Source: Patescibacteria group bacterium (GTDB lineage: Bacteria; Patescibacteriota; Patescibacteriia; UBA10025; JAHIVO01). From it: a DNA stretch of 64,000 bases. Shown here piece after piece: positions 45,301-58,711 of this stretch. Below the pieces are notes generated by a model. The model did not search any database and was not told where the DNA came from. It was given only the letters and a program-made list of their open reading frames with translations. Each line of letters begins with the position of its first letter. Positions within the stretch are counted from its first letter, which is position 1. A program made the position numbers and the translations under genes. The DNA lies in the NCBI GenBank assembly GCA_041660605.1, contig JBAZWB010000001.1, positions 137,295 to 201,294 of the forward strand, read 5' to 3'.

Positions 45301-48300
45301 TATACGGATGAAGGGTCGACGTTATATAATTGCGCATCGAATAATCTGACTATTGCCGTCAAGGTTAATGGTTATGGTACGTACAGCAGTACCTGTACAA
45401 CCGCTGACGGGGAATATGTATTAAGTGACGTGATGGTTGATGGGACCAATGATGTGCTGACTGTTTTTCTGAATAATGAAACGCCAAACGCCGTAGCCGT
45501 CTCAAAAATTGCCGATACGCCAGCGGGTATTAATAATTTAAATCTGTACCAGGATAAAGTAATCGTCCGGCACGAAAGCTCTTCAGCCATGACCAATGCG
45601 AATCTGGACAAGTATGATTTCGTCAACGAAGGCAGTGACGGCGATATAGGGTTTACTGTCACGACTAATAATATTACCGTGGCCTCCGGCTGGGAGCTGC
45701 ACGTCTGGACTGGCGATACGTATGACCCGGGCGGTACGGTTACGACCAACGCGACCGGCGGTGATCTGCACGTGGACGATAGTGCGGTAGTCTATCTGGA
45801 TACGGCTACTAATGCCATTGGCCGGGATATTCTGGTTGACGGTAGCGCCACCCTGAACATTGATGCTGATACGACCGTCTCCGGCGGCGATATCACCATT
45901 TCAGGAAGCGGGGCGACGGTTACAAAATCCACCGGCACGCCAACTGTGACAATTACCGGCACCGGCAGTATCGGCGGCGGCACGACGCCCTCAATAAGCT
46001 TTTACAGCCTGACCGTCGGCACGGCTACAGCCGCCAGCACGACAGCTGCAAATAATATTTCTGTTACCAATACCCTTAATGTCGATACCAGCGATTCTTT
46101 GGCTATTGCCTCGGGAATGACTGTCACACATAGCGGCGCCACCCTGACTTTGAATGGCACGATATCCGGCGCTGGGCGCTTAACCTATAAGAGCTCCACG
46201 GCTTTCCCGACCGGCGGTACCATTTCTTCAATATTACGCTTTGATTCCTCGTCTAATAATCAAGATTTGAGTTCGCGGACCTATGGCGGTAACGTGGAAA
46301 TTTACGGCAACAACGCATCAAATATTGTTACGGCAGCATCAGGTACTTATACAATCAGTGGTAGCTTGACCACAAGCCAGGATGGGACAGGCGCTACCGC
46401 GTTGGATTTGAATGCCAACGCCCCCAATCTGACGGTCAATGGCGCGTTGACCGTCGGTGCTAATACGATCCTCAGCTCCACTGCCAACATACTAGATGTG
46501 AAGGGTAATCTAACTAATAATGGAACATTTTCTAATAACGGCGGCACGGTACGCCTCAGTGGCACTTCACAGCAGACCATGTCCGGCTCCTGGAATGGGG
46601 CTCAACTTGCCGACCTGACAGTTACCAATAATTCCGGGTCTGATCCGGATACCAGTCCATCAGTTATTTTTTCCTCCTCAGTTTCACTTAATGGCACCTT
46701 TACTGCCGCTACCGGCGGAACCAAGCTAAGGTTCAACACTGGCATCACTTTTTGGGCTTATGGCTTGACCCTAACGGGTTCAGCCGGCAATCTGGTTTAC
46801 CTGCGCAGTTCCACGTCGGGTACGGAAGTGACTTTTGAATACGGCGGTTTGGCCCAGAGCGTCACCTATGCTGATGTCAAAGACATGGACAATGGTGGTG
46901 GTACCGTCATAAACGCCACCGGAACCGGTAACGTCAATTCCGGCAATAATACCAACTGGGACTTCGGCTCTATCCGCGTAGCTGGTACGATTTATTCCAA
47001 TGACGGAGTAACGCCCTATAACTGCAGTTCGGACAATTTGACTATCAAGGTTTCGACGAATGGCGGGGCGGTTAATTCCGGCACCTGCACGGCAGCCAAC
47101 GGCACATTTGTCATGACTAATATAACTAAGCCCGGTGCCATAGACCAGCCAATTGCCCTGTTAATTGACAGCGGGGAAACACCGCAGGCGACTTCTGTCA
47201 CGTTGGCAGCCAGTACCCTTGGTGACGCGAATATGGATTTATACCAGAACCGACTGATTATTGACTCCGAGACCGGTACCACAATGACCGATATTTTATT
47301 GGATACAGCGGACAACAGCGGTGATGCCGGAATACGTTACGCTATTGCCAGCGGTAACCTAAGCGTGTCGAGCGGGCTCGGCTTGTGGGTATGGACTGGG
47401 AAGAACTTTACCCCCGGCGGGACAGTCACTACGCCGGCGTCCGGCACTGCTGCCGGAGGCGCTGGAGATGTCAATATTGCAGCCAGCGCGACGCTTAATA
47501 TGGCTGCCAACGCGCTTTCAGTCGGCGGCGATTTTACTAACAGTGGAACATTTACTATAACTTCAGGCCAGGCAACGACATTTACCGCCACGGGTACCGA
47601 TTTCGCGATTGACGACGGTACGGCAACTTTTCAGAATATTATTTTTAATGGTTCCGGCGGAGGCTGGTCATTTAGTTCAGCGGTAACCTTGTCAGGTGAT
47701 TTGACGATGACTGCCGGCATGCTTTCCGGCACCAGCGACATCACCGTCAATGGGAACGACATTACCGGCAATGGCACTATTAATTTAACGGGTGGCACGG
47801 TTTCCCTGCCGGATACCGGCAGTCTGGGAGGGGATGCGGCCTGGACGTTTTATAATCTTTCCCTGACTCAGGCAAGTTTTACTGATAAAACAACCACTGC
47901 CATCGGCAGCGGCAGTATCACTGTCAGCAATGTTTTAAGAGGCTATAGTGCTTATGACGCGGGTAGCGACCATGATTATTTCCATATTCTCGCGGCAGGG
48001 TCGAAAACGTGGATACTGTCAGGCACCGGCACTCCATTTGCGAATGGCGGTCTTCTCGTCGGCGATACTTCTACGTTCCGCTATACCGGCAACGGGGCGA
48101 CTAATATCGCTTCTGCCGAGGATGCTACTACGAATTATTATTATAACTTAGAGCTAAAACCATCCGGTACCGCCACTTATACCCTGCCTGACGCAATTGT
48201 TAGCACGCCCCAGCGAGTGAACGGCAATCTGATAATTGGCAACGGCACTAATTCAGTTACCGTCGATGGCACGACGAATAATCCATATTATAATATCGGC

Positions 48301-51300
48301 GGCAATGTTACCTGTACTACGGGTGCTGGGACGAATACTGTCCAAACCGGCACTGCTACCTGGGCCATCGCGGGTGATTTTGATCTCTCGAATTGCGACG
48401 TATTTACCGCGACTGCGGGGAACACTATTACGCTTTCCGGCACGAGCAAAACCTACACGCATAATAACCTGGCCGGCAACCCCTATAATTTGAATATTAC
48501 TGGCACGATTGCCGAATCAACGCCCGGCACCAACTATATTGATAATAACCTAACTATCAGCGGTACATTCACCAGCACGGCGGCTACTCTAGGCGTTGGC
48601 AATACTTTTACTAATAATGGTACGTTTAACGCGAATAATGGCGATGTTGTCTTCAGCGGCAGCAGCGGTATAATTGCCGGTTCCAGCACTACGACTTTCT
48701 TCGGCCTTTTCGTCCAGCCTACCGGCAGCGGCACGGTGACGGTCAATGGCTCCAATCCTACGGTAACGGACGACCTTTCTGTCGCTACCGGAGACACCCT
48801 CTCAATAAGCAGCGGGCAAATATTATCGCATACCGGCGGTACGATTGACCTGCTTGGAATAATGTCAGGCGACGGCCTGTTACGAATTACTAACGGATCG
48901 AGTGGTCCTGGCACGACCGGCACTCTCAATGTTGATGTGCGCTATGAAAATGGCATATCGGAGACCACGCTTGATGCCAGGACTTATGGCGGGGATGTGG
49001 AATTTTATATTGATTCTGAGGCTTTAATGTCAGCATCATCCCGGATGGCCAGCGGCACTTATAATTTCAATGGCAATTTGTACATAAATGCCGTCAATAA
49101 CGCCAATATTTCTTTAGAGGGGAATTTTAATAATCCAACGGTTAATGTCACCGGTAATATTGATTTTCTCGGATCGGGTCCTGGAATGGAAATCATCCAG
49201 ACAGGCACCGGCACCTGGACGGTCGGTGGAAATATCGATTTTACTGATGGCACTTATACGGCAACAACGGGAAATACGCTGACCATGAACGGCGCAGACG
49301 CCACTATTAATACCGGCGGCAATAGTTTGTATAATTTCAGCACTTCAGGCACCGGCATTATCACTACCGCATCTGCCATTACAGTGACTAATGATGTGAG
49401 TATCGGCACTGGCAGCACATTGCGCGCCAATACAGATACCAGCGTAGCGGGTGATTTGACTGGCGATGGCACGCTGACTTACACCAGCGGCACGCCTACG
49501 GTCACTATGTCTAATACAGGCAATATTGGCGGTGCGACAGCCTGGACATTTTACAATTTGACGCTGTCTGCTGATGCCTCCAGCGATTACACGACTACCG
49601 CTGCTGGCATCGGCAACATTAACATTGATAATGTTTTAACCACCGAATCGGCTGACTGCGGCGTGGACTGTTTTCGTTATCATTACCTTAATGGCGGGCT
49701 GAAGACCTGGACGCTCACTGGTTCCGGTACGCCGTTTATAAATAATGGATCATTGACGCCGGCAAGCTCTACCTTTGTTTTTTCAGGAACGTCAGCCACA
49801 ACTGTTGCCGGAGCGACGTACAATAATTTATTGCTCCTGCCGCCGAGCGGTACGCCAACCTATACGTTGGCCGGATCGCAATATATTGCCGGCGATTTTT
49901 CAATGGCGGCTGGACTAACCATGGATGCCGGTGCGTATACGGTTACGATGGCCGGCACAAACAACAGCATCATCAGTAACGGTCAAACACTGTATAATTT
50001 AACGATCGATCCGGCGACGACCGGCACTATTACTGTACAGACAGGCAATCTGACAGTCTCAAACAATCTGCGAATTGAAGCGGGCGATACTCTGGCCATC
50101 GACAACGGCGTGACGCTGGCCCACACCGGGAATGATTTGATCATCTTGGACAGCGCGAGTACGATTGCGGGTCCCGGCCGGCTGACTTACCGCAGCGCCA
50201 CGGCGTTTCCCACTGATGGTACGTTATCAGCTGGCCTGATCCTGCGGCTGGATACGACTAGTACCAACCAGACGATGAGCAGCCGGACTGATTATCAGCT
50301 GGTGGAAATCGACAACAGCGGAGCCACCGGCGGCCGGACGGTAACCATAGGTTCGGGTACTGCGCAGACCGTTACTACGTCGGGCGCTTTGTCCGTCCTG
50401 TCTTCCGGTAGCGGTTCAGTTGAGTTGGCGGGAGCGACATATAATCCAGCGGTCAATATCGGGGGAGACCTGAGCTACACGGCGGGAGGAGGGACGAAGA
50501 CCATAACGACCGGGACTGGCACCTGGACCGTTTCCGGCAATGTCAATCTGACTAATGGCACCTTTACCAAAAGCACCGGCCATACGCTTGTTATGAACGG
50601 TTCTTCTAAGACGCTTACTTCGGCTGCACAGATATTGGAGAACCTGACGCTTTCCGGCACCATTACGCTGGCTAATGCCACCCACACAGTCAATGGCAGC
50701 CTGACGTTAAGCGGAACGGTAACTGCCGGATCCTCTAATGTAACCATGACGGGTACGTCGAATACTATCGTCGGTGGTGGAAATATTTTAAGTACATTGA
50801 CCATAAATCCTTCATCCACCGGTACAATCACGTTACAGACCTCTGACTTAACTGTTTCCGGGACGCTGAGTGTTGCCGCAGACGATACATTGAGCATTGA
50901 TACCAGTCGCACTGTGACTGCTGTAGATACGTTAGTCATTAATGGCACCATTTCAGGCGCCGGACGTTTAACATTCAAGGGCTATACCTTCCCGGGTACC
51001 GGCACCGTGAGCTCAATCGTCCGGATGGACGCGACCGATGCCGGCTCAGGCCAGAATATCGGCGCCCGGACATTCGGCGGCTTAGTTGAGATATATAATA
51101 ATTCCGCCAGCAGTAACCGGATTGTTTCTCTGCAAAGCGGTACGTTCAATTTCAGCGGCGATGTCAATCTTACCGCCGCCAACAATCAAAATGTAACCCT
51201 CGATGGTTCGGGTAATGATTCCACCGTCAACATCACTGGTAACCTTGATTTCACTGGAGCAGGCTCCGGCAGTGAAATTATCGCTTCCGGCACCGGCACT

Positions 51301-53412
51301 TGGACTATTTCTGGCAATATTGATTTTACTGACGGGACTTACACGGCCACAGCAGACAATATTCTCAAGATGAACGGAACAGCTAAGGCCATCACTTCCG
51401 CCAGCAATGCCTTAAGTAAATTTGAAGTCTCCGGCGGCAGCGTTTCTACTGCAGATGCCTTGTTGGTCAATAAAACGCTCAATATTTCTGGCGGGGGATT
51501 TACGCAGGCAGCCAATGCCAACCTTACCGTGTATGGCAATTTTACGATCGCTATTGGCACGACATTCACCAACGCCTCGGGCACCGGCATCCTCATCTTA
51601 GACGGCAACCCCACGGCCAATACTTTCACGGATAACTCGTCCCCAAAACAGAACATGGGTGACGTACAAATTGGCTTGTCGCCGGGTACCACGGATCTAG
51701 CCAGCGATATGATCGCTAAGAAGTTGACGATTAACGATGGCGACATATTCAACACTAATGGTTATGATCTAAACATTGGTATCGGAGGGATTATTGTCGC
51801 TGCTGATGGTGGCTCAGGCGGAGGCACATTGGATGTTGACGATGACGTGGAAACAGACGGTACGGTTATGGAAACAGACGGCATCTTTGACTTAAAAAGT
51901 GGCGGTGATTTATTAAACAGCGGTGGGACAAACGTGGGTTCCTTGCTGAAATTTACCATGCCGGCAGCCTTAGCTGACGTAACCAGTGATTTAATAACTG
52001 CTGGCACTGGCTCGCTATATGATCTTGAAGTTGATGACGGAGCCGGAGATTATAATTTAATCGTTGAAGTTGAGGATCCATTGGATGTGGATAATAATAT
52101 TAACATTACTGGCGGTATTTTAGATACGAAAACCGGTGAGAGTAACGCTATTACTATTGGCGGCAGTTGGGCCAACAGCGATACGTTTACTGCCCGGTCT
52201 GGTACTGTGACGTTTGACGCAACGTCAGGCACGAAGACCGTAAACCCCGGAACGTCTCCTTTTTATGTGCTTACCTTTAACGGTGTTGGCGGCACCTGGC
52301 AACCGACCACTAATACGGTTACGGTGTCCAGTAATCTGAATGTTACCAACGGTACAGTGGACAACGAAACCAACGACCAGATCCTGGATATTGGCGGAAA
52401 TGTGGCTATCAGTTCTGGCGGAGTACTGCAGGCTTCCTCAACCGCCAGCTTTACTGTCGCTGGCAACTGGGCAAACAGCGGCGATTTCACTGATGGCACC
52501 GGGACAGTCACGCTCGATGGTACGGCGCAGCAGACGCTCTCCGGCCAGCTGACAGGCGCGAATGATCGCTTCTATAACCTGACGGTTACTAACGCGGGCG
52601 CTGCTGACCCTGACGTCATCTTTGATGCCAGCGCTGATACGGATAATAACTTCACGGCCGCAACGGCGGGTACGCAGCTTCAGTTCAAAGCTGGCAGTAC
52701 TTATGCGTTTGACAATATCGCCCTGGACGGCCAGGCAGCGGGTACCAGAGTTTTCCTGCGCTCTTCGTCATTGGGCACGCAGTGGAATATAAATGTCTCC
52801 GGTTCGCGTTCAGTCTCCAACACTAACGTGCGCGATTCATACGCCTGCGGCCAGCCGCCCGATATAGACGCCTCCGACGGCACGAATTTTGACGCTACCA
52901 ATAATAATTGCTGGTTCATTAATTCACTGACTTTTTCGATATCAGATGTAGCCATCGGTTTCGGTCCGCTGGGAGCCGGGGGAGCCCGCTGGGCGACCGG
53001 CGATGGCAATGGCACTGGCGCGCAGCCGGCCGTAGGCAGCGGAGCCCATGAATTGACTATCAGCAGCAATTCAGACAATGGTTACGCCATTACTTACTAC
53101 GGCACGACCCTGACTGGCGAGCATGGCACTATCAGCAATGCCACCATTGCCGGTGATGGCAATGGTATACCGGGGACTGAGCAGTTTGCGCTGTCAGCTT
53201 CTGCCTCTGGCGATGCGGTTATCCCCGTTGACTATCGGTATAGCAGCAATAACTATGGTTTTGTTGAAAATTCGCTCACTACATTAGTCTCTGAATCCGG
53301 GCCAACAGCTTCAGAAACAATTGATCTATATTATATAGCTAATATTGCGACGCAAACCGAAGCCGGAGAATATAGTACAGCAATAATATATATTGCCACC
53401 GCAACTTTCTAA
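33379..53412 (+). CDS. Giant surface protein (6677 aa): N-terminal excisionase-type HTH plus TM helix, Asn/Thr-rich linker, Ig-like and Thr/Gly/Ser/Asn-rich beta-helix-like super-repeats, C-terminal SCPU/Csu-pilin-like domain
   Basis: Single uninterrupted ORF of 20 kb. Repeated modules ASASGNTVDYGYAGAQTV..YHHL.LSGSG.KT (5 copies), ELHVWTGDTYDPGGTV.TNATGGD.HVDD (3-4 copies), SGTIYTDEGS..YNC.SNNLT..VKVNG (3 copies). Confidence 0.85.
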   Translation: MTLQRFFNKNTPNWLTKPKRGNRGKEIDFKSYPALLTIEQVGEIFNIHANTVRNWDRTGKLKAVRMGSRRDRRYPKEMVQKIYLEMHPKETEDKKESNEKTALPAPEVSKYIIQPGFSFNKIRLLLISKRFTVFVYSVIMVAVAFVTVQVSFFAYVYTIRAEEKPPEEYTLTINPTVVKGWQNPDKAKEIETKTNSPISDFTEKNAAIFHNKPVVSPTEAPAVPIKAEEVLPAANTNHETITDTNVNINTAVPPPSPEPPPANSNLNQAVTPANTNVNVNTNTNSNSNANANTNSESVNTNSENTNTNLNSNSNANTGVESDLNANTNTSVPVEGQPQVKVLGEETSQVGEVIETAQENIFEASGYAFPDTVPELAKLKSVKIIYSLAADTYPDNEDVITLSYSLDNGDSWQTADSFALLDNVSNSTHGGYWEVSLNNIDIKDFAKIRARVSYNAVPSDKDAKAYLDGIILEAVVKNPEPAVVEIQNSVEIEKTDVKIDEQPVVSVAVEQESFFSFIGAASQTREVKDIELVDPSGEAIKEVNYDLQEVQEGKTIKAEYAIQTDNFDKPGRYQVKMQIEQDGVTEEVTQEFNWGVLAINPDQSIYQAGQPAMLSIGVLDETGNMVCDADVTLEITNPDGEVTIKKTSDGGITVSQYCTYKGEFKGPDYYTDYIPSVPGTYKMKLSATHHSGTNVINDSFEAQLFPEYTIKRTGPTRVFPYIYQPMVLEVTAQKDFEGEITEVVPDVFEVKDTDDAQMRRFTSGTVIYKEIVWQRALAAGQTMKLSYNFKTPEKSPALYFVGPARVGDWNEGREWQMAIDVTYMYVLAKNASAPSGWTDDTATFDNKYLRGAATFSSTGGGAATHAPTIHHNNVNPSTDAAGTTCTRRCGAVATLAHTHTSSNPTIGDASNDPAYHTFYVWKNNTGVPANIPQNAFGFFDANPGGSWTRLSAADSRLVKLDNSHTTGGTDTHSHTVTWQSLAAASGSSSSLDPLLGDGTAASVHGHFAPAFGSTDSQTSVPQYVTTLIYEQTNATPPAIPTGYIGLFDADPGAGWTVISDGALEDYYQRFIRGDATTEGTKAGANTTDHAEVTSGASDAPDTNALGSVGTVYSGPNHTHTITTGFNTEDHTPSYVDFVVAQYTGASSTINLSGVAYQENESSPINGSSVNKTVNLLVNGAATACGGAACTDEITTSDGAWAITGITAVSGDIITVFLNDETEEGTTVFKSDGVTQTNINIFQNAVIVRNDTGTSITNANLESGDRDAGDNDIKFDVSSSNVTVDSGFELHVWTGDTYDPGGTVSTNATGGDVHVDDSATIYFDTATSQVGLGTIVDASATLNLDAATTFGGDVTINSTGTWNNTTANLSLTIPGSLQNNGTFNAGTGTYTFNGATKTFSGTTATTIPSVSVSGTLQNNGTLTVSSALAGGGTLTNGATGALHIDVAAASLTLTTLTASASGNTVDYGYAGAQTVKAVTYHHLSFSGSGAKTLTSLTTVNGDLTWSGTATGTSASSLIVGGNLVINDTANFSAGAVNLTVMGTTSITGTLTFNSSTGTKILTGAVTINANGTWTNSGNSALWFKGGLTNNSANTFTAGSGAYAFYTNDQAIGGTNAISIPNVNVPTITLTNNGTLTVTTQLTGSGGITNSATGALHIDAASFSLTTLTASASGNTVDYGYAGVQTVHDNTYHHLTLSGSGDKTMTTNTRTIGGNLTLSGTATATTNASGTTTVTGDVIINTGTTLTVAVAFVVNGGDITGDGTLTYTGTPIIYLNGTGNLGGATAWTFYSLNLAASGGTATTTAIGAGQITIASTLTLVYYYNAGNDTESFHHLNAGPKTWTLSGSGTPFIKNATFTPATSTFIYSGTGSTNITGATYNNLTLQPSSGTPTYTLADSTAYTIGGNLVMSSTANLTVSAGTSIITMTGTSNTITGGGQTIYDLTINPATAGTITLQTSGLTLTRNLIVSSGDIFSVGAIALTVTGTSTITGTINITSATGTKIFTGLVTVSTTTGVWNNSGNSAVTFRGGITNNNTFTAGSGVHTFDTNSQALTGTFSIPSVTVTSPTTLTNDGTLTISTALSGTGGLTNSATGTLNIGGTSGITTITASASGNTVNYTGGVQTVHINTYHHLTLSGSGAKTMTSVQTVNGNLTLSGTVTATISSSFGVGLDVIINTGTTLTVAAQLIVSGGDITGDGTMTYTGTPTVYLIGTGSFGGANAWSFYNLTFAISSGAATTTTATGAGQITVASVLALSYWFNGDSDVNHYLDAGSKTWTLSGSGTPFPYNRAYAQLIPNASTFIYSGTSATNVRYAPYNNLTLSGAATYTQLTGGCTVSGALNVANGATFSIPTSMTVTNSGTFTLNTSGTVSGAGTVKFTSTSAGPGTGGTLSAVVQYDSSGGSIASTTFDARTYVGAVDIYGNNSSNSVTAASGTYTFSGNLSITQDGTGTTTLDLNTSDPTVGVTGTTTIDASTILSASSASAMSLGDDFTNNGTFTHNSGSVALTTTATATITGNTTFNNLSVSGIGAAKTITFTASSVTTVVGTWTVTGTAGNLITLQSSSSPTQWTINPTVASVSYVQVSDSNNTGVAFCATYSTDTGDNNTNWSVSSGGVCTTINVSGTIYTDEGSTVYNCSSNNLTVRIKVNGVGSYSADCTAAGGTFAVSNVSVGAINDVVTVFLDNETPNAVTITKTADTTSNLTDINLYQNKAIVRHESASAITNANLDQYDFANEGSDGDIGFTVTTNNITVASGWELHVWTGKTYNPGGTVATNATGGDLHVDDSGVFTTGGTTTVGANLAIDTGATMTAGAYDLTVTGTTGITGTMTISSATGTKILTGSVTVNSGGTWTNSGNSNVEFQGGLTNNSANTFTAGTGGYAFDTNSQAIGGTNAISIPSVTVTGVTLTNNGTLTVTTALAGSGGITNATTGALHIDVAAASFTLTTLTASASGNTVDYGYAGAQTVKATTYHHLILSTSGAKTMTNVTTINGNLTMTGTVTASTSTSGQTTVAGDVSIGTGTTLTVDTANLVVNGGDITGDGTLTYNGTPTVSLDGNGSFGGNTAWSFWNLTFADAACATLYSNATGSGGITVNNVMTTASQPGACIEVDEVSNAHDLYAGSKTWTIAGSGTSYVKNRGVLTPETSTFIYSGTGSTTVALGPYNNLTLQPSTGTPTYTLQNSTYSIGGNLVIVPDITAGTSTVNMTGTSNTITGGGRSIYNLTINPATAGTITLQTSGLTVAHNLIVSSGDIFSVGAVDLTVTGTSTITGTLTLSSATGTKIFTGLVTVSTTTGTWNNSGNSAITFQGGLTNNNVFTAGTGVYTFDTNDQAIGGTSTIAIPSVTVTTITLTNNGTLTVTTALAGTGGITNDTTGSLHIDVAAASLTLTTLTATASGNTVDYGYAGAQTVHDNSYHHLTLSGSGDKTMPAGTKNIGGNLTLSGTATATTYSGVGTTSVTGDVSIGTGTTLTIAKDILVSGGDITGDGNLTYINTPIVYLSGAGNFGGATNWSFYDLIFSISSSPNTTTTAIGAGQITVASVLTISSWNDGFGETYYHNLDAGSKTWTLSGSGTPFTGNATLTPSASTFVYSGTSATTVDAGPYYNLSLQPASPPDYVIYTIGDTTVGGNLVMSTLAQKLITQVGTSTVTMTGTSNTITSGGQSLYNLTINPSSAGTITVQTDDFQVDGALDIADNDTFSIPTGRTVTSIGAITLNTSGTVSGAGTLSLDYRSTGLGTGGTVSCIVRFDTTSASIGAGTFDARTYGGLVQLYNNQQTLDRVITAPATGTFVFSGGLTMRVNNQYGELTADFDDTTDPTVTVTGSVTIPAGGTFLAPSSTTLSVGASFSNSGTFTHNSGTVALTTSAAATITGNTTFNNLSVTGIGAAKAITFTGSSVTTVAGTWTVTGTAGNLITLQSSDTNNWTINPAAASVSYASISRSTNTGISFCAIYSTNGGNNAGWNISIGPICESVSITGIIYTDEGSTLYNCASNNLTIAVKVNGYGTYSSTCTTADGEYVLSDVMVDGTNDVLTVFLNNETPNAVAVSKIADTPAGINNLNLYQDKVIVRHESSSAMTNANLDKYDFVNEGSDGDIGFTVTTNNITVASGWELHVWTGDTYDPGGTVTTNATGGDLHVDDSAVVYLDTATNAIGRDILVDGSATLNIDADTTVSGGDITISGSGATVTKSTGTPTVTITGTGSIGGGTTPSISFYSLTVGTATAASTTAANNISVTNTLNVDTSDSLAIASGMTVTHSGATLTLNGTISGAGRLTYKSSTAFPTGGTISSILRFDSSSNNQDLSSRTYGGNVEIYGNNASNIVTAASGTYTISGSLTTSQDGTGATALDLNANAPNLTVNGALTVGANTILSSTANILDVKGNLTNNGTFSNNGGTVRLSGTSQQTMSGSWNGAQLADLTVTNNSGSDPDTSPSVIFSSSVSLNGTFTAATGGTKLRFNTGITFWAYGLTLTGSAGNLVYLRSSTSGTEVTFEYGGLAQSVTYADVKDMDNGGGTVINATGTGNVNSGNNTNWDFGSIRVAGTIYSNDGVTPYNCSSDNLTIKVSTNGGAVNSGTCTAANGTFVMTNITKPGAIDQPIALLIDSGETPQATSVTLAASTLGDANMDLYQNRLIIDSETGTTMTDILLDTADNSGDAGIRYAIASGNLSVSSGLGLWVWTGKNFTPGGTVTTPASGTAAGGAGDVNIAASATLNMAANALSVGGDFTNSGTFTITSGQATTFTATGTDFAIDDGTATFQNIIFNGSGGGWSFSSAVTLSGDLTMTAGMLSGTSDITVNGNDITGNGTINLTGGTVSLPDTGSLGGDAAWTFYNLSLTQASFTDKTTTAIGSGSITVSNVLRGYSAYDAGSDHDYFHILAAGSKTWILSGTGTPFANGGLLVGDTSTFRYTGNGATNIASAEDATTNYYYNLELKPSGTATYTLPDAIVSTPQRVNGNLIIGNGTNSVTVDGTTNNPYYNIGGNVTCTTGAGTNTVQTGTATWAIAGDFDLSNCDVFTATAGNTITLSGTSKTYTHNNLAGNPYNLNITGTIAESTPGTNYIDNNLTISGTFTSTAATLGVGNTFTNNGTFNANNGDVVFSGSSGIIAGSSTTTFFGLFVQPTGSGTVTVNGSNPTVTDDLSVATGDTLSISSGQILSHTGGTIDLLGIMSGDGLLRITNGSSGPGTTGTLNVDVRYENGISETTLDARTYGGDVEFYIDSEALMSASSRMASGTYNFNGNLYINAVNNANISLEGNFNNPTVNVTGNIDFLGSGPGMEIIQTGTGTWTVGGNIDFTDGTYTATTGNTLTMNGADATINTGGNSLYNFSTSGTGIITTASAITVTNDVSIGTGSTLRANTDTSVAGDLTGDGTLTYTSGTPTVTMSNTGNIGGATAWTFYNLTLSADASSDYTTTAAGIGNINIDNVLTTESADCGVDCFRYHYLNGGLKTWTLTGSGTPFINNGSLTPASSTFVFSGTSATTVAGATYNNLLLLPPSGTPTYTLAGSQYIAGDFSMAAGLTMDAGAYTVTMAGTNNSIISNGQTLYNLTIDPATTGTITVQTGNLTVSNNLRIEAGDTLAIDNGVTLAHTGNDLIILDSASTIAGPGRLTYRSATAFPTDGTLSAGLILRLDTTSTNQTMSSRTDYQLVEIDNSGATGGRTVTIGSGTAQTVTTSGALSVLSSGSGSVELAGATYNPAVNIGGDLSYTAGGGTKTITTGTGTWTVSGNVNLTNGTFTKSTGHTLVMNGSSKTLTSAAQILENLTLSGTITLANATHTVNGSLTLSGTVTAGSSNVTMTGTSNTIVGGGNILSTLTINPSSTGTITLQTSDLTVSGTLSVAADDTLSIDTSRTVTAVDTLVINGTISGAGRLTFKGYTFPGTGTVSSIVRMDATDAGSGQNIGARTFGGLVEIYNNSASSNRIVSLQSGTFNFSGDVNLTAANNQNVTLDGSGNDSTVNITGNLDFTGAGSGSEIIASGTGTWTISGNIDFTDGTYTATADNILKMNGTAKAITSASNALSKFEVSGGSVSTADALLVNKTLNISGGGFTQAANANLTVYGNFTIAIGTTFTNASGTGILILDGNPTANTFTDNSSPKQNMGDVQIGLSPGTTDLASDMIAKKLTINDGDIFNTNGYDLNIGIGGIIVAADGGSGGGTLDVDDDVETDGTVMETDGIFDLKSGGDLLNSGGTNVGSLLKFTMPAALADVTSDLITAGTGSLYDLEVDDGAGDYNLIVEVEDPLDVDNNINITGGILDTKTGESNAITIGGSWANSDTFTARSGTVTFDATSGTKTVNPGTSPFYVLTFNGVGGTWQPTTNTVTVSSNLNVTNGTVDNETNDQILDIGGNVAISSGGVLQASSTASFTVAGNWANSGDFTDGTGTVTLDGTAQQTLSGQLTGANDRFYNLTVTNAGAADPDVIFDASADTDNNFTAATAGTQLQFKAGSTYAFDNIALDGQAAGTRVFLRSSSLGTQWNINVSGSRSVSNTNVRDSYACGQPPDIDASDGTNFDATNNNCWFINSLTFSISDVAIGFGPLGAGGARWATGDGNGTGAQPAVGSGAHELTISSNSDNGYAITYYGTTLTGEHGTISNATIAGDGNGIPGTEQFALSASASGDAVIPVDYRYSSNNYGFVENSLTTLVSESGPTASETIDLYYIANIATQTEAGEYSTAIIYIATATF

Positions 53413-53558
53413 TATTAGCCATTGTCTTTGACACATTAAAGTATTTATGATATACTATCTGCAGATAACGTGGTTAAATGTGGTTTTTCTCGGATTTTTT
53501 AATAAAACCGAAAAAATTAAATTAATATATAAAAATTAATAATTAAAATGAGCAAAAT

Positions 53559-54626
53559 ATGGTTAAACTAAAACGATTGTATGTCGTAATTTTAGCTCTT
53601 TTTTTAGTGGTAGCGTTTAACGTACCAGCCCTACCAGCCTGGGCTGCCAGTCTGTCTGATATGTCAGACACCTTGACTACGGCTGCTCAGAATACTGTTG
53701 CAAATCATACTATTCTCTTCACCACCCCGACTGGCGTTCCTGCAGGGCAGACAATCACCTTAACATTTGATACGGATTTTCAGGATCTGGCGGGTATCAC
53801 TGAGAATGACGTGGATATTGCCGATGACACCGTAGATTTAACAACTGCTGCCGACTGTACCGGCGCTGAACAGGCTAGCGTAGCCATGGCCAGCCCGACT
53901 TTAACGATTACCATCTGCGCTGGTGACGGTGGAGATATCGCGGCTGCCAGTAATGTAACTATTGAAATAGGTACTAATGCTACTGCCTCCGGTATTGGCG
54001 CTAATCAGATAAAGAATCCAGCCGCCGCGGAAACTTCCATGATTGCTTTAGCCGGCACGATGGCTGATTCCGGCACTCTTTCGGTAGTAACAATTGCAGA
54101 CGATAGCGTCGCGGTTACCGCCACGGTAAATCCTAGTATTACTTTTTCAATAACAGACACGGCTATTGGTTTTGGCGCTTTGACTTCAGCCAATGCCCGT
54201 TTTGCTACTGCAGATGGTAACGGCTCTGATACTGACAGCACCGCTGCCTTTACTATGGATGTATCCACAAATTCAACAAATGGTTATGCCATTACATATA
54301 ATGGTTCAACGCTGACTAGCGGAGCAGATACCATTACTGTAGCCAATATTACCAATGATGCAAATGGAACTGCTAATACGGAAGAGTTCGGCATGGGCTT
54401 GTCAGCCAGCGGAGACGCGACAGTTGCCGCTGCCTATGATCACAATGCGACAGCAGGCAATCGCGACTGGGCATTTATCGATGCCACGACCACCACGATT
54501 GTTTCCGAAAACGGCCCAACCGCCACGGAAACCATCAGCGCTTTCTTCCTGGCGAACATTTCCGGCAATACCGAAGCAGGCAGCTATTCAACCGCGATAA
54601 CCTATATTGCCACCGCCACTTTTTAG
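53559..54626 (+). CDS. Secreted protein (355 aa) whose C-terminal ~165 aa is homologous to the C-terminus of the giant protein
   Basis: Signal peptide (MVKLKRLYVVILALFLVVAFNVPALPAWAAS); C-terminus ...NGYAITYNGSTLTSG...EAGSYSTAITYIATATF versus giant ...NGYAITYYGTTLTGE...EAGEYSTAIIYIATATF. Confidence 0.8.
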   Translation: MVKLKRLYVVILALFLVVAFNVPALPAWAASLSDMSDTLTTAAQNTVANHTILFTTPTGVPAGQTITLTFDTDFQDLAGITENDVDIADDTVDLTTAADCTGAEQASVAMASPTLTITICAGDGGDIAAASNVTIEIGTNATASGIGANQIKNPAAAETSMIALAGTMADSGTLSVVTIADDSVAVTATVNPSITFSITDTAIGFGALTSANARFATADGNGSDTDSTAAFTMDVSTNSTNGYAITYNGSTLTSGADTITVANITNDANGTANTEEFGMGLSASGDATVAAAYDHNATAGNRDWAFIDATTTTIVSENGPTATETISAFFLANISGNTEAGSYSTAITYIATATF

Positions 54627-54708: not shown

Positions 54709-55638
54709 ATGCTTATGTCGAAAAAAAATATTATCGCTTTCAGCGCTATCCTGTTCTTTGCCTTTTTGGTGCTGCCGAAGATTTCGGCTGCACTGGAAGT
54801 AACGCCCGCTATACGCGAGGTTGATCTGGCTAAGGGAGAGAAGACCGTGGTCATGATTGAACTGCAGAATGAGGCCACAGAAACCATGCAATTAAACACG
54901 CAGGTGGTCAATTTTACGGCTAAAGATGAGATTTCCGGCGAGCCGGAATACAATCTGACCGGTACGCCTACTGGTATTGCTACCTGGACTACTGTACAGG
55001 CAGGCCCGATAGTTATCCAGCCTTCCGGCAAAGTAGAAGTCCCGGTAACTTTTGATACGCCTGCCACTGCTACACCCGGCGGCCACTACGTCGGGGTGGT
55101 TTTTAGTTTTGTAGAATCTGCCGCTGCGGCAACCAATAACAGCCTGAAGATTGAGTCAAAAGTGGCAGTACCAATATTAGCGACTGTCGCGGGCAACTTT
55201 ACGGAAAGCGCCAGGATTGTTGCTTTCAAAACAAATAAGACTAATTATACTTCCGGCCCGGTTAAATTTACCCTGCGTTATGAAAATACCGGCGCTGTTC
55301 ACCTGAAGCCTACCGGTAAAGTCACCGTAACCAGCATGTTCGGCAAGGTGGTGAAGGAAGCTACCATTAATACCGAATTAAGCGCAGTCCTGCCGGGGAC
55401 TATCAGGCAGTATGACGTCGCCAGCTGGAAAGACCTAGGCAGTGCTTTTGGCAAATATACCGCCAAGGTCACTCTGACATCAAGCGGCGTAGTCACTAAT
55501 GACACTTACGATTTTTGGGTATTTTCAACCACCGGCATTGTTATCGCGGTTGTCATATTATTAGTGGTTATGATCCTGATAGTTTTACTGATTAAGGCTT
55601 TAACCAAGAAAAAAACAGAAGCCCCGGCTGCTAAATAG
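54709..55638 (+). CDS. Cell-surface protein with signal peptide, beta-rich ectodomain of about 260 aa, C-terminal TM anchor and Lys-rich tail (paralog 1)
   Basis: N-terminal signal peptide, C-terminal IVIAVVILLVVMILIVLLIKALTKKKTEAPAAK; shares PGGHY and NTGAVHLKPTGKVTV motifs with the next gene. Confidence 0.75.
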   Translation: MLMSKKNIIAFSAILFFAFLVLPKISAALEVTPAIREVDLAKGEKTVVMIELQNEATETMQLNTQVVNFTAKDEISGEPEYNLTGTPTGIATWTTVQAGPIVIQPSGKVEVPVTFDTPATATPGGHYVGVVFSFVESAAAATNNSLKIESKVAVPILATVAGNFTESARIVAFKTNKTNYTSGPVKFTLRYENTGAVHLKPTGKVTVTSMFGKVVKEATINTELSAVLPGTIRQYDVASWKDLGSAFGKYTAKVTLTSSGVVTNDTYDFWVFSTTGIVIAVVILLVVMILIVLLIKALTKKKTEAPAAK

Positions 55639-55653
55639 CTTTTATAATAAGTT

Positions 55654-56661
55654 TTGTGTATGCATTGCATTGTGAAAAAAATTAATTTTCGCCTGATCTT
55701 CCTTTTTGCATTTGTTGTCGTTGGGACTCTGCTTTTGGGAAATGGAGCGCAAGCCGTGACGCTTATTCCGCCGTCGTTGGAAATTGGCTTAAAACCGGGC
55801 GCTGAATATGACACAGTTATAAAGCTTTTTAACGAAACTTCAAATACCATCAGTTTATATACTGAAGTAACCAATTTTTCCGCTAAGGGAGAAACCGGTC
55901 AGCCGGAATTTGATTTTGGCGGTGAGCTAATCGGCCTGGCAAAATGGATAAACGTGGAAAAAGGCCCGATCGTCATTGAGCCGGGAAAACGTTATGAAGT
56001 TCCGGTGGCCATCAAGACTCCTGTTGACGCCGATCCGGGCGGCCATTATGCGACCTTGTTTTTCAGCTCTTCTCCTCCGGAAGAAGGCCAGCTGCGCATT
56101 GCCTCAAAGGTAGGTACGCTGATCCTAGCGCGAGTCGACGGGGAAATAAAGGAAGCAGGAAGCATCACTGAATTCAGCGCTAGCAAAAAAACTTTTTCGA
56201 GTCTGCCGGTTGAATTTACCATTCGCTTCAGTAATTCCGGAAATGTCCATCTGAAGCCCACAGGAAAGATTGCTGTAAAAAATATTTTTGGGAAGGAAAC
56301 AGTTTCTATTGATTTTAACGCCAGCAAAGGAGCCACTCTGCCAAATACCGTACGCATGTATCAGGCTACCTGGGACAAGGGGCTGATCATTGATAAATCG
56401 GGCAATGTCTGGTCAGATTTCTGGCAGGGTTACAGCAATGAAAAAAACAATTTTGCCCTGGGCAAATATACCGCTGAATTAAGCATTACTGCTGGTACGC
56501 TGGAGAGCGTCAAGGACACCGCTAAGGTGGGTTTCTGGGTATTGCCCTGGCACATGATGCTGGTCTGGGGCTTACTAGCGGTTTTAGCGGTATTATTGAT
56601 TATATTTTTGATCAAGAAATATAACGCATGGATATTAAAAAAAGCGAAATCACAGCAATAA
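55654..56661 (+). CDS. Cell-surface protein with signal peptide and C-terminal TM anchor (paralog 2)
   Basis: DPGGHYATLFF, NSGNVHLKPTGKIAV; C-terminal LLAVLAVLLIIFLIKKYN...KKAKSQQ. Confidence 0.75.
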   Translation: MCMHCIVKKINFRLIFLFAFVVVGTLLLGNGAQAVTLIPPSLEIGLKPGAEYDTVIKLFNETSNTISLYTEVTNFSAKGETGQPEFDFGGELIGLAKWINVEKGPIVIEPGKRYEVPVAIKTPVDADPGGHYATLFFSSSPPEEGQLRIASKVGTLILARVDGEIKEAGSITEFSASKKTFSSLPVEFTIRFSNSGNVHLKPTGKIAVKNIFGKETVSIDFNASKGATLPNTVRMYQATWDKGLIIDKSGNVWSDFWQGYSNEKNNFALGKYTAELSITAGTLESVKDTAKVGFWVLPWHMMLVWGLLAVLAVLLIIFLIKKYNAWILKKAKSQQ

Positions 56662-56664
56662 GTA

Positions 56665-57576
56665 ATGAAAAAATCGTGCCCGTCATCAGTTAAATATTTT
56701 CGTATACTTTACGTGTTTGTCCCGCTATTAGTATTGATAGCGGGATATTCATTTGCCGAAGCGCAAGTGTCGCGTCAGGTTACGGTCACGGCCACAGTGC
56801 CGGAAAAACCGCCCATAGAAGAGCCGGATACTATTGTAATTTTCCGCGGCATCGCTTACCCCTCATCCACGGTCACTATTAATCAGGACGGTTCGGCTAT
56901 TTCTATTATAACTACCAATACCCAGGCGCAATTTGACGTTTCAGCCAAGGTGGATCCGGGCACTTACACTTTCACCATTATCGGCGTGGATACTGACGGG
57001 GTTGAGGGCAAGGTTTCCAATTTTACTTTGATGCTTTCAGAAGGGACGACTACCACCATCAGCGGGATATTTCTAGGACCGACTATTTCCATTGACGATA
57101 CCGTCATCGGGCCCGGAGAAACCGCCACCCTGGCCGGCACTACGGTGCCTGACAGCGAGGTTAATGTTACCGTCAGCTCGATTGGTACGGCCGCCGCCGC
57201 CGGCGATCCCCAGATTGCCGTGCATATCGCCAGTGCTGATTCAAACGGCCGCTGGCTGCAGCTTTTAAATGCCGACGAAATGGAAGCGGGAGATTATGAA
57301 GCAAAGGCGCAGTCAACAGAACCGCAGAATCATGCGGTTTCTGAATTCAGTAAAATCGTCGGTTTCCAGGTACAGGGGCAGACAGAGCCTGACCAATGCG
57401 CCGGCGCCTTGCCGGGCGATATCAACTGCGATACTTTTGTCAATCTGGTGGATTTCAGTATTTTGCTTTTTTATTGGGACAGCTCCAGCCCGGCTAATCC
57501 GCGGGCCGACATAAATACCGACGGGGTCGTTAATATTATTGATTTTAGCATTATGCTTTTTTACTGGACTGGATAA
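56665..57576 (+). CDS. Secreted Ig-like-domain protein with a C-terminal dockerin (two Ca-binding-loop-like repeats)
   Basis: GDINCDTFVNLVDFSILLFYW and ADINTDGVVNIIDFSIMLFYW form a dockerin type I-like duplicated segment. Confidence 0.7.
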   Translation: MKKSCPSSVKYFRILYVFVPLLVLIAGYSFAEAQVSRQVTVTATVPEKPPIEEPDTIVIFRGIAYPSSTVTINQDGSAISIITTNTQAQFDVSAKVDPGTYTFTIIGVDTDGVEGKVSNFTLMLSEGTTTTISGIFLGPTISIDDTVIGPGETATLAGTTVPDSEVNVTVSSIGTAAAAGDPQIAVHIASADSNGRWLQLLNADEMEAGDYEAKAQSTEPQNHAVSEFSKIVGFQVQGQTEPDQCAGALPGDINCDTFVNLVDFSILLFYWDSSSPANPRADINTDGVVNIIDFSIMLFYWTG

Positions 57577-57580
57577 ATAT

Positions 57581-58711
57581 ATGACCAAAAAAAATATTAA
57601 AATTCTGATTTTTTCCTTAATCTTCATCGGCGCTTTTTTATTGGCCGGACGGGTCAGCGCGGCAACTCTTTCCATCCAGCCGTCGCAGGATGAATACGCC
57701 ATCGGAGAAACATTCATTGTCGAAGTGCATTTAAAAGGAGAAGGGGAAATTGTCAATGCGGTGAAAGCGACCATAACGTATCCCAGTGATTTATTGGAGG
57801 TGACGGAATTATCAAAAGGGGGTTCGTTTTTATCGCTTTGGGCGCAAGAGCCAGCCAATGAATCAAGCGGCGGAGTTATCAGTCTGGCTGGCGGGATACC
57901 GAACGGCAGTTATGTGGTAGATGGCAGAGTGCTGGCTATCACTTTCCGCACCATTGCTCCGGGCGGAGCGGAAATCGCTTTTGACCAGAACCAGACGGGC
58001 GTTTATCTGAATGACGGCCATGGTACGCCGGCAAATTTAACTCTGAAATCAGGCATCTTCAACATTGCCGATCGCACTAACGTGAAAATAACTTCACCGA
58101 CCCATCCTGACGAAGAGGCCTGGTACCAGAATAAAACATTTACGGTAAATTGGAGCCCGAAAGAAGGGGCGAAGTACAGCTACTTACTGACCAATGATCC
58201 TGATAAAGCCCCGGATGAAGTGCAGGAATTCGCCGAGGGCGTAGTAACATTCAAGGATTTGCCGGACGGAATTTCATATTTTATTTTAAATGAGCAACTC
58301 CCGGGAAAATCGTGGCAGATCGTGGGCAAACGGCGGGCGATGGTGGATACTGTCCTGCCCTCGCCGATTGAAACGATTGTCAGCCGGGACAGGACATTGT
58401 ATGATGGGAAATATTTCTTGATTTTTTCTGCCGTGGACAGGACTTCCGGCGTGGATCATTATGACATTATTGAAGATGGAAAGAAATCCAGCCATGCCGT
58501 TTCCCCCTACATTTTATCAGATCAAACAAGGCAGGAAATGATAGAGATTCGCGCTTTTGATAAAGCGGGTAACGTCAGAACCGCGGTTTTGGGGGACAAG
58601 AGGGGGAGCCTAGAGGAAGAGAGGGGTTTCACCATAGCCCTGCTGATGTTTATCGGCGCCTTAATTCTCTTGCTGGTTTTTGTTCTGGTTAGGACCAGGT
58701 CAAAAAAATAA
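57581..58711 (+). CDS. Cohesin-domain surface protein with C-terminal TM anchor (start moved to MTKKNIKIL)
   Basis: N-terminal ATLSIQPSQDEYAIGETFIVEVHLKGEGEIVNAVKATITYPSDLLEVTELSKGGSF is cohesin-like; C-terminal hydrophobic segment plus RTRSKK. Confidence 0.65.
   Translation: MTKKNIKILIFSLIFIGAFLLAGRVSAATLSIQPSQDEYAIGETFIVEVHLKGEGEIVNAVKATITYPSDLLEVTELSKGGSFLSLWAQEPANESSGGVISLAGGIPNGSYVVDGRVLAITFRTIAPGGAEIAFDQNQTGVYLNDGHGTPANLTLKSGIFNIADRTNVKITSPTHPDEEAWYQNKTFTVNWSPKEGAKYSYLLTNDPDKAPDEVQEFAEGVVTFKDLPDGISYFILNEQLPGKSWQIVGKRRAMVDTVLPSPIETIVSRDRTLYDGKYFLIFSAVDRTSGVDHYDIIEDGKKSSHAVSPYILSDQTRQEMIEIRAFDKAGNVRTAVLGDKRGSLEEERGFTIALLMFIGALILLLVFVLVRTRSKK

Follow-up and report, generated by a model that had tools for sequence, protein, structure and literature searches.

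A giant protein of a Patescibacteria locus ends in the C-terminal domain of Pam-type pilins

Results

A giant and a small protein share their C-terminal domain

We analyzed a 64,000-nucleotide stretch of the Patescibacteria contig JBAZWB010000001.1 (positions 137,295 to 201,294; hereafter the window, in whose coordinates all positions are given) and focused on seven genes that encode, in order, a giant protein of 6,677 residues, a protein of 355 residues, two membrane-anchored proteins, a dockerin-bearing protein and two cohesin-bearing membrane proteins. The giant and the 355-residue protein end in a common C-terminal domain (CTD), which sequence profiles assign to the pilins of the Pam pilus system of candidate phyla radiation (CPR) bacteria. 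The features of these two proteins are as follows.

33379..53412, + strand: giant open reading frame (ORF), 6,677 aa, proposed acceptor-only tip subunit
52828..52923, + strand: two-Cys module VRDSYACGQPPDIDASDGTNFDATNNNCWFIN, directly before the giant CTD, at the position of the pilin linker strand
52924..53412, + strand: Pam-type CTD of the giant (NF058581), residues 6516-6677 plus the stop codon, beginning SLTFSISD
53559..54626, + strand: two-domain Pam-type pilin, 355 aa; likely signal peptide 1-29 (AWA/A), N-terminal β-sandwich 30-179, linker 180-192, CTD 193-355
54096..54134, + strand: conserved pilin linker ADDSVAVTATVNP, residues 180-192, ADDSVxVTATVDP-type
54135..54623, + strand: pilin CTD, residues 193-355

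The original prediction, made from the sequence alone, held that the last ~165 residues of the two proteins are alike, and BLASTP bore this out: the last 162 residues are common to both, with 51% identity (84/166) and 68% positives (E = 4e-46), spanning giant residues 6516-6677 (window 52924-53409) and residues 193-355 of the small protein (54135-54623). The shared region comprises 162-166 residues from S[LI]TFSI onward, holds every one of the motifs quoted in the prediction (FSI[ST]D.AIGFG, NGYAITY.G.TLT, SASGDA, SE.GPTA.ETI and EAG.YSTAI.YIATATF), and is preceded by 30 residues that are unrelated between the two proteins. A local assembly duplication, which the prediction had named as a possible source of the likeness, is ruled out because the DNA encoding the two CTDs is only 60% identical and the same paralogue pair recurs in other genomes. 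For 37 of 43 loci, the CTD of the upstream protein, which carries a CTD and no pilin N-terminal domain (hereafter CTD-only), resembles its counterpart in another genome more closely than the pilin CTD from the same locus (median identities, 66% vs 54%), and the two copies are therefore old paralogues. Their divergence points to an old functional split between the CTD-only class and the pilin CTD.

Profile searches place the shared domain among Pam-type pilins

Both CTDs pass the curated cut-off (55 bits) of the NCBIfam model NF058581 (CPR_Pam_pilin_C, Pam pilus system pilin subunit), the giant CTD with 58.4-58.6 bits and the 355-residue protein with 71.9 bits, and the model is matched by all 72 related CTDs compared with it (best E = 1.5e-26). 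The model of PamT, NF058579, is also matched weakly by both copies. By these profile matches, the shared module is the CTD of Pam-type pilins. In the giant, it was detected only with the HMMER bias filter off (--nobias; E = 1.9e-58). Automated annotation may miss the CTD in such proteins because the default filters silently drop this T/G/S-rich giant.

The Pam system comprises the pilins PamA, PamB, PamE and PamT, the chaperones PamC and PamD, and the anchor PamR, and is covered by the NCBIfam models NF058581 and NF058579. Cryo-EM of Ca. Mycosynbacter amalyticus filaments identified PamA and PamB, each with an N-terminal sandwich of nine strands, a strand serving as linker and a C-terminal ‘open β-barrel’, that is, a truncated immunoglobulin-like (Ig) fold that takes the linker of its neighbor (bioRxiv 10.64898/2026.03.03.709456). 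In the same preprint, PamT is a CTD-only tip pilin to which an acceptor-only logic is applied, PamC and PamD are membrane-anchored and resemble PapD and FimC, and PamR is an RbmA-like transmembrane (TM) anchor that donates its N-terminal strand. By homology with PamA and PamB, we propose that the CTD of the window is an incomplete Ig-like fold that would be completed by a β-strand of the next subunit. The last strand hardly varies among 145 CTDs, with Gly at position −15 in 99% of them, Tyr at −13 in 100% and at −7 in 93%, and Phe at −1 in 95%, and the CTD always lies at the protein end in the 370 clusters that match the last 223 residues of the giant in a representative library of 1.84 billion proteins.

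The original prediction of an Ig-like pilin domain assembled by donor strands was right as to the class of mechanism, because the NF058581 domain, whose cut-off both copies pass, is an incomplete Ig fold completed by the strand of a neighbor. Its remark that such a module is not described for CPR bacteria is out of date, since the Pam preprint and the NCBIfam models describe the domain. The domain itself is already known, and the core of the finding is a further member of a very recently described family. No Pfam model matches the isolated CTDs at E up to 10, and searches of PDB sequences with the pilin and with a 72-sequence CTD profile returned chance matches only, from a PDB set without PamA and PamB.

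The small protein has the plan of a shaft pilin and the giant lacks the linker

The 355-residue protein has the architecture of a Pam shaft pilin, namely a β-sandwich, a single linker strand and an Ig-like CTD, and 739 homologues of it were found. Its AlphaFold2 model, built from a 63-sequence alignment (pLDDT 92.7), contains two β domains with strands at 36-179 and 194-353; residues 180-193, corresponding to the linker, have no secondary structure and no intramolecular strand partners in this monomer model. The linker motif is present in 101 of 101 two-domain pilins from the window and from a survey of 81 related loci, and is absent from all 47 clear-cut CTD-only proteins listed. The single high-scoring ‘CTD-only’ exception on a scoring matrix of the linker is a pilin cut off by a locus edge. 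The giant, like PamT, has neither the pilin N-domain nor the linker; it carries the two-Cys module instead, which also precedes the CTD in many giants of other genomes.

Before this module, the giant consists of an HTH_17-like N-terminus (a MerR-type DNA-binding match at residues 35-80, E = 3.4e-7), one hydrophobic segment (~130-158), an Asn/Thr-rich stretch and a body of ~6,000 residues of T/G/S/N-rich repeats that look β-helix-like by eye. At 6,677 residues it is the largest protein of its kind seen, because the longest relative among the best 150 matches to its C-terminus has 4,118 residues. The ORF starts at a GTG at 33379, and the HTH_17 region (window 33379-33860), which lies ahead of the hydrophobic segment, is either a genuine cytoplasmic domain on a giant surface protein or the result of an over-extended start. 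With a cleaved segment the giant would be a free tip adhesin, and with an uncleaved one a fiber tethered at its N-terminus.

The gap between the giant and the pilin genes holds one further feature.

53428..53456, + strand: promoter-like site (TTGACA, 17-base spacer, TATACT, with TG; 11/12 consensus positions)

Promoter-like sites in the region are no more numerous than shuffled expectation, and this one is a consensus match only; it may give the pilin separate, higher expression.

Two membrane-anchored proteins are related to Firmicute WxLIP

The pilin gene is followed by genes for two candidate chaperones.

54709..55638, + strand: candidate 1, WxLIP-like and PapD-like, 309 aa; signal peptide, two Ig-like domains, C-terminal TM helix 274-299
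55654..56661, + strand: candidate 2, WxLIP-like, 335 aa; paralogue of candidate 1

The two are 37% identical (E = 1e-57), and the candidate-2 type is the sole chaperone copy in most related loci. WxLIP, the protein after which we describe them, consists of DUF916 and DUF3324 (PF06030 and PF11797) plus a TM helix and is encoded in loci with small and long WxL proteins (PMC10599100). The AlphaFold2 model of candidate 1 (pLDDT 88.9) shows two Ig-like domains and the TM helix, with a lower-confidence loop at 131-150 that aligns with the interdomain loop of WxLIP. When this model was compared with the PDB by Foldseek, the first match was Enterococcus faecium WxLIP (9i1y and 9i25, bound to long WxL; E = 5e-12), followed by RbmA (E = 5e-10, TM-score ~0.27) and then by the chaperones CsuC, CfaA, CupB2, Caf1M, DraB, FimC and SafB (E = 1e-8 to 1e-7). 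Alignment by hhalign of the candidate family with nine Firmicute WxLIPs, taken from WxL loci on plasmids, gave 97.3% probability (E = 2e-11, 251 columns), and without the signal peptide and TM helix still gave 94.2% (E = 1e-7), with a score of 57.1 against a shuffled-control maximum of 17.2. The two best matches of the family profile among PDB sequences are EfmWxLIP1 (E = 0.004), and 20 of 26 family members match Pfam WxLIP_PGBD (PF06030) weakly.

On these sequence and model comparisons, the two downstream proteins are homologues of Firmicute WxLIP that resemble the chaperones of chaperone-usher systems. The original prediction had seen in the locus a mirror of Firmicute WxL loci; for the accessory proteins, this analogy turns out to be real homology because the Foldseek, profile and hhalign evidence agree, whereas homology to WxL is not shown for the CTD itself, which has no WxL Pfam match. 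Pam loci are marked by neighboring PapD/FimC-like chaperones with a C-terminal TM helix, and the two paralogues here are of this kind.

A dockerin protein starts with a linker-like strand and precedes two cohesin proteins

The last three genes of the row encode the following proteins.

56665..57576, + strand: dockerin adaptor, 303 aa, proposed donor-only base subunit; signal peptide, linker-like strand QVTVTATVPE (residues ~34-46; window 56764-56802), Pro-rich spacer, Ig-like domains, dockerin
57412..57555, + strand: dockerin domain, residues 250-297, duplicated segment; Dockerin_1 29.9 bits vs cut-off 22.9
57539..58711, + strand: cohesin-bearing membrane protein 1, 390-aa ORF with a likely true start at the ATG at 57581; signal peptide, cohesin, Ig-like/OmpL47-type domain, C-terminal TM helix
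58723..61185, + strand: cohesin-bearing membrane protein 2, 820 aa, its order after the dockerin gene kept in related loci; signal peptide, cohesin, PE-rich linker, Ig-like domain, hydrophobic segments, two CarboxypepD_reg domains

The dockerin protein has no CTD. In ~55 full-length orthologues (264-370 aa), a strand such as QVTVTATVPE, LNVSVSAIVQ or IDVTVSATVE comes right after the signal peptide and is followed by a Pro/Gly-rich spacer. On the pilin-linker matrix, the N-termini of the dockerin proteins are the best matches among 3,926 non-pilin ORFs, with a median that exceeds the one for chaperone and cohesin proteins of the same size by ~10-12 bits. No single protein of the window combines the three features of PamR, namely an RbmA-like double fibronectin type III fold, a donor strand at the N-terminus and a TM helix at the C-terminus: the RbmA-like chaperone-type proteins are without a linker-like N-terminal strand, and this strand is found on the dockerin protein instead. 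Pfam Cohesin matches membrane protein 1 with 20.5-23.9 bits (cut-off 24.1) and is matched by 17 of 28 orthologous domains (best E = 1.1e-9), and the top PDB matches of the profile of this domain are cohesins. The pairing of dockerin and cohesin suggests that they anchor the base of a pilus. In membrane protein 2, the CarboxypepD_reg pair (E = 8e-20) lies after the cohesin and the hydrophobic segments, and the protein has a long basic Pro-rich tail.

Four proteins (L041:8035-8931, L058:7421-8956, L062:6200-7762 and L064:7350-8861) join a pilin N-domain and a linker-like strand to a C-terminal dockerin, with no CTD, and they occur in loci without an upstream CTD-only protein. In the Saccharibacterium Southlakia epibionticum, epibiotic growth requires a protein with a dockerin domain, SEML1_0315 (PMC10633639); this protein could correspond to the dockerin adaptor.

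The gene order is conserved in related loci

The order CTD-only protein, pilin(s), chaperone(s), dockerin protein and cohesin proteins is conserved, including in complete Parcubacteria-group genomes, and the named relatives of the subfamily belong to this group (Nomurabacteria, Kerfeldbacteria). A CTD protein without the pilin N-domain sits directly upstream of the two-domain pilin gene(s) in 50 of the 81 loci; among the 31 loci without it, 17 have less than 4 kb of upstream sequence. Complete CTD-only proteins range from 249 to 2,991 residues, and many other members are cut by the locus edge at more than 3,200 residues. The smallest approach the size of the 241-position PamT model, and members of 249-377 residues have classical signal peptides; the giants of other genomes start with a basic region followed by one hydrophobic segment.

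A second, divergent module lies downstream of the first chaperone gene in eleven loci (L012, L021, L037, L048, L054, L055, L057, L058, L062, L064 and L072). It consists of a 361-377-aa protein with a weak CTD match (E ~1e-4 to 1e-8), which may be a second pilin type, and of one to three more chaperone-like genes.

Discussion

Proposed assembly and the points against it

We consider it reasonably likely, on the domain architectures and gene order described above, that the shared module serves as a Pam-type pilin CTD in a pilus with the giant as an acceptor-only tip, WxLIP-like chaperones and a dockerin base joined to cohesins. In this assembly, the 355-residue protein would be a standard shaft pilin, with its linker ADDSVAVTATVNP as the donated strand and its CTD as the acceptor. 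The giant could accept a strand and not donate one, and is probably carried at the tip of the pilus, at its distal end, because it has the acceptor CTD and lacks the linker and the pilin N-domain; it would play the part that PamT has as CTD-only tip pilin, with a very large repeat-rich adhesin fused on. FimH and PapG are tip adhesins that are placed distally in this way by an acceptor-only pilin domain, and the ‘long WxL’ proteins of Firmicutes follow a matching logic. Until strand exchange, the WxLIP/PapD-like chaperones would keep the open CTD in place at the membrane. At the other end, the dockerin protein, with a linker-like strand and no CTD, would cap the last pilin and end growth, and its dockerin, by pairing with the cohesins of the two following membrane proteins, would then fix the pilus base to the cell, so that the dockerin and cohesin proteins together would take the place of the single TM-anchored PamR. 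We infer each of the binding steps and the placement of the giant at the tip; the joint of cohesin and dockerin at the base is likewise deduced, from the architecture of the proteins and the order of their genes.

Several observations weigh against this assembly. The giant is not PamT itself, because it scores 27 bits on the PamT equivalog model against a cut-off of 240 and has 6,677 residues vs ~241 in the single-domain PamT; the two would have an equivalent logical role and are different proteins. The giant also begins with an HTH_17-like region and a single hydrophobic segment, and if this segment is an uncleaved anchor, the giant would be N-terminally tethered and the simple tip model would need changing. 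The strand of the window's own dockerin protein scores only 7.6 bits on the linker matrix, and the cohesin of the window falls just under the Pfam cut-off (23.9 vs 24.1 bits). Fold searches with the whole pilin model found only generic Ig-like adhesins, sortase pilins and cohesins, and no chaperone-usher pilin, WxL or Pam match, in a PDB set without PamA and PamB. Finally, the reference Pam system is described in a single preprint.

Alternative explanations

The homology of the accessory proteins with WxLIP invites a different explanation, in which a hairpin strand of the WxLIP-like protein inserts into the CTD and tethers the giant and the small protein to the cell, with no filament. A strand of WxLIP is indeed predicted to complete the WxL sandwich (PMC10599100), PDB 9i25 is a complex of WxLIP with long WxL, the layout of the loci is the same (a large and a small protein that share a C-terminal domain, beside a TM-anchored two-Ig protein), and the lower-confidence loop 131-150 of the chaperone model coincides with the WxLIP interdomain loop. 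We nevertheless regard such anchoring without a polymer as unlikely, since the HMM family of the CTD includes members seen as filaments by cryo-EM, the strongly conserved linker strand of the pilin would be needless for pure anchoring, and the conserved donor-only dockerin proteins and acceptor-only CTD proteins suit a polar polymer; moreover, homology between the CTD and WxL is not demonstrable past the last strand. The polarity could also be reversed, with the giant as the base: its hydrophobic segment would be anchored in the membrane and its CTD would recruit pilin(s), which would extend or loop a long cell-attached fiber. The basic N-region and single hydrophobic segment of the giants, unlike a classical short signal peptide, are consistent with this, as is the cytoplasmic-type HTH_17 ahead of the segment in the window. 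On the other hand, the small members of the class have classical cleavable signal peptides, a membrane-anchored giant together with a cohesin-docked adaptor would tie both polymer ends to the cell, and the HTH may reflect over-extension of the ORF to an upstream GTG, so that we find this arrangement quite improbable.

Membership of the CTD in the spore coat protein U (SCPU)/CsuA-B pilins of the archaic chaperone-usher type, or in the WxL family proper, both suggested by the original prediction, is very improbable. The terminal strand, G-x-Y-x-T-x-I-T-Y-I-A-T-x-T-F, is like the one that ends chaperone-usher pilins, and one of the structural matches of the chaperone candidate is CsuC. This strand is also the sole stretch that hhalign aligned locally with WxL, where the comparison of the CTD with 19 WxL domains covered only the last 13 residues (5% probability), with a score of 22.1 that none of 40 shuffled controls reached; global alignment found nothing. 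However, no match to PF05229 (SCPU) or PF13731 (WxL) turned up among 63 family members (E up to 1) or in the isolated CTDs (E up to 10), and the W-x-L motif, which a WxL domain carries twice, is absent from 140 of 145 CTDs and occurs once in the other five. No usher family of Pfam or NCBIfam is matched by any of the seven operon proteins scanned, and the predicted donor strand lies inside the protein, as a linker, and not at its N-terminus as an extension. Membership proper in either family is rejected on these sequence tests, namely the absent Pfam matches, the rarity of W-x-L and the null global alignment with WxL.

Comparison with known systems

The system of the window shares with Pam pili the CTD (by HMM), the plan of the shaft pilin, two-Ig chaperone-like proteins with a TM helix, the lack of an usher and a proposed polar logic of acceptor-only tip and donor-only base. 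It differs from them in that its acceptor-only subunit is a 6,677-aa giant and not a 241-aa CTD-only PamT, and its proposed donor-only subunit has a dockerin in place of a TM helix and is followed by two cohesin-bearing membrane proteins. The named relatives of its subfamily belong to the Parcubacteria group, whereas the preprint stresses Saccharimonadia and Microgenomatia. A term search of the preprint text found no mention of giant proteins, adhesins or WxL.

WxL loci resemble the window in the homologous accessory protein, which is also its best structural match, and in a large and a small secreted protein with a shared C-terminal domain that a strand of a TM-anchored partner is predicted to complete. 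The CTD of the window, in contrast, has no WxL Pfam match and no dual W-x-L, WxL proteins are described as peptidoglycan-bound, non-polymerizing surface proteins, and the Firmicute WxL loci that we compared encode a small LPXTG protein but have neither dockerin nor cohesin genes. When compared by eye, GW-x-[LV] and TW-x-L, the motifs of WxL, coincide in position with the GY-x-I and TY-I-A of the CTD, which we note as a lead. On an Enterococcus faecalis plasmid (NZ_CP124902.1; L088:7454-11728), a 1,424-aa ‘pectate lyase-like adhesive domain’ protein is encoded beside WxL and WxLIP genes and may parallel the repeat-rich body of the CPR giant.

With chaperone-usher pili (Pap/Fim, Caf1, CFA/I and archaic Csu), the window shares donor-strand complementation and exchange, here as a prediction, a two-Ig chaperone, a proposed tip adhesin that combines a receptor module with an acceptor-only pilin domain, as in FimH and PapG, and a terminal strand with alternating hydrophobic residues after a conserved Gly. 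It has no usher and no outer membrane, its chaperones are membrane-anchored, its putative donor strand is, the dockerin adaptor apart, an internal linker, and no membership of its CTD in their pilin families was found at the sequence level. The duplicated-segment dockerin, above its Pfam cut-off, and the N-terminal cohesins on cell-anchored proteins recall cellulosomes, from which the window differs in having no glycoside hydrolases, in the carrier of the dockerin, a small Ig-like protein with a pilin-linker-like strand at its start, and in the proposed use, the anchoring of a pilus base, for which we know of no earlier description.

Novelty and implications

The giant acceptor-only subunits, the homology of the chaperones with WxLIP, and the dockerin/cohesin set with its linker-like strand were not found in the preprint or in the literature searched and appear to be new. 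In that literature, no link between WxL and donor-strand systems was found except for one 2013 review that merely contains both terms, and only the Pam preprint links CPR bacteria to donor strands, with no mention of WxL. More tentatively, Pam pili, WxL loci and chaperone-usher pili might be branches of one ancient strand-complementation family, with giant adhesins on tips and cohesin-dockerin bases in the Parcubacteria-type branch. In such a family, a two-Ig chaperone would hold an incomplete Ig-like domain, and monoderm-type cells (CPR, Firmicutes) would use a membrane-anchored chaperone and need no usher. If so, the Parcubacteria-type branch would mount giant proteins on filaments in a novel way and put cohesin and dockerin to a new use.

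CPR bacteria live attached to other microbes, and to our knowledge, little is understood of the way in which they get to these hosts and stay on them; giant genes, common despite the small size of CPR genomes, have no assigned display mechanism that we know of. If the giant is a Pam-type tip subunit, a class of CPR giant proteins would gain a testable function, the capture of a host at a distance, and there would be candidates for the adhesins of Pam pili, an open question according to the preprint. Through the homology of the CPR chaperones with WxLIP, two systems that have been studied separately become linked, which suggests strand complementation as a possible mechanism for WxL proteins too, among them those of Enterococcus and Listeria. 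The cohesin-dockerin genes, kept after the pilin genes, point to a modular, non-covalent fixing of pili on a cell without an outer membrane.

Genomic surroundings and record titles

The rest of the window is ordinary chromosome, with genes for a class I (Trp/Tyr-type) aminoacyl-tRNA synthetase, RNase J, UvrA, UvrC, GroEL and pyruvate phosphate dikinase and two tRNAs. Among the related loci, the operon-bearing contigs L004, L006, L015, L023 and L053, together with other third-party annotation (TPA) records of metagenome-assembled genomes, are titled ‘uncultured Gammaproteobacteria’, ‘Bdellovibrionales’ or ‘Pseudomonadales’, and L038 is titled ‘candidate division FCPU426’; such non-CPR titles on contigs with a CPR-type operon look like unreliable labels or mis-binned contigs. 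Just upstream of the giant in the window, a 671-aa ORF (30890-32905) with one hydrophobic segment and no Pfam match carries two C-terminal repeats of a motif (RKSDIGQLRTALILYYDD... and KRLADLKKLREGVLLFYDY...) that, by eye, is like the region following the N-terminal helix of type IV pilin-like proteins.

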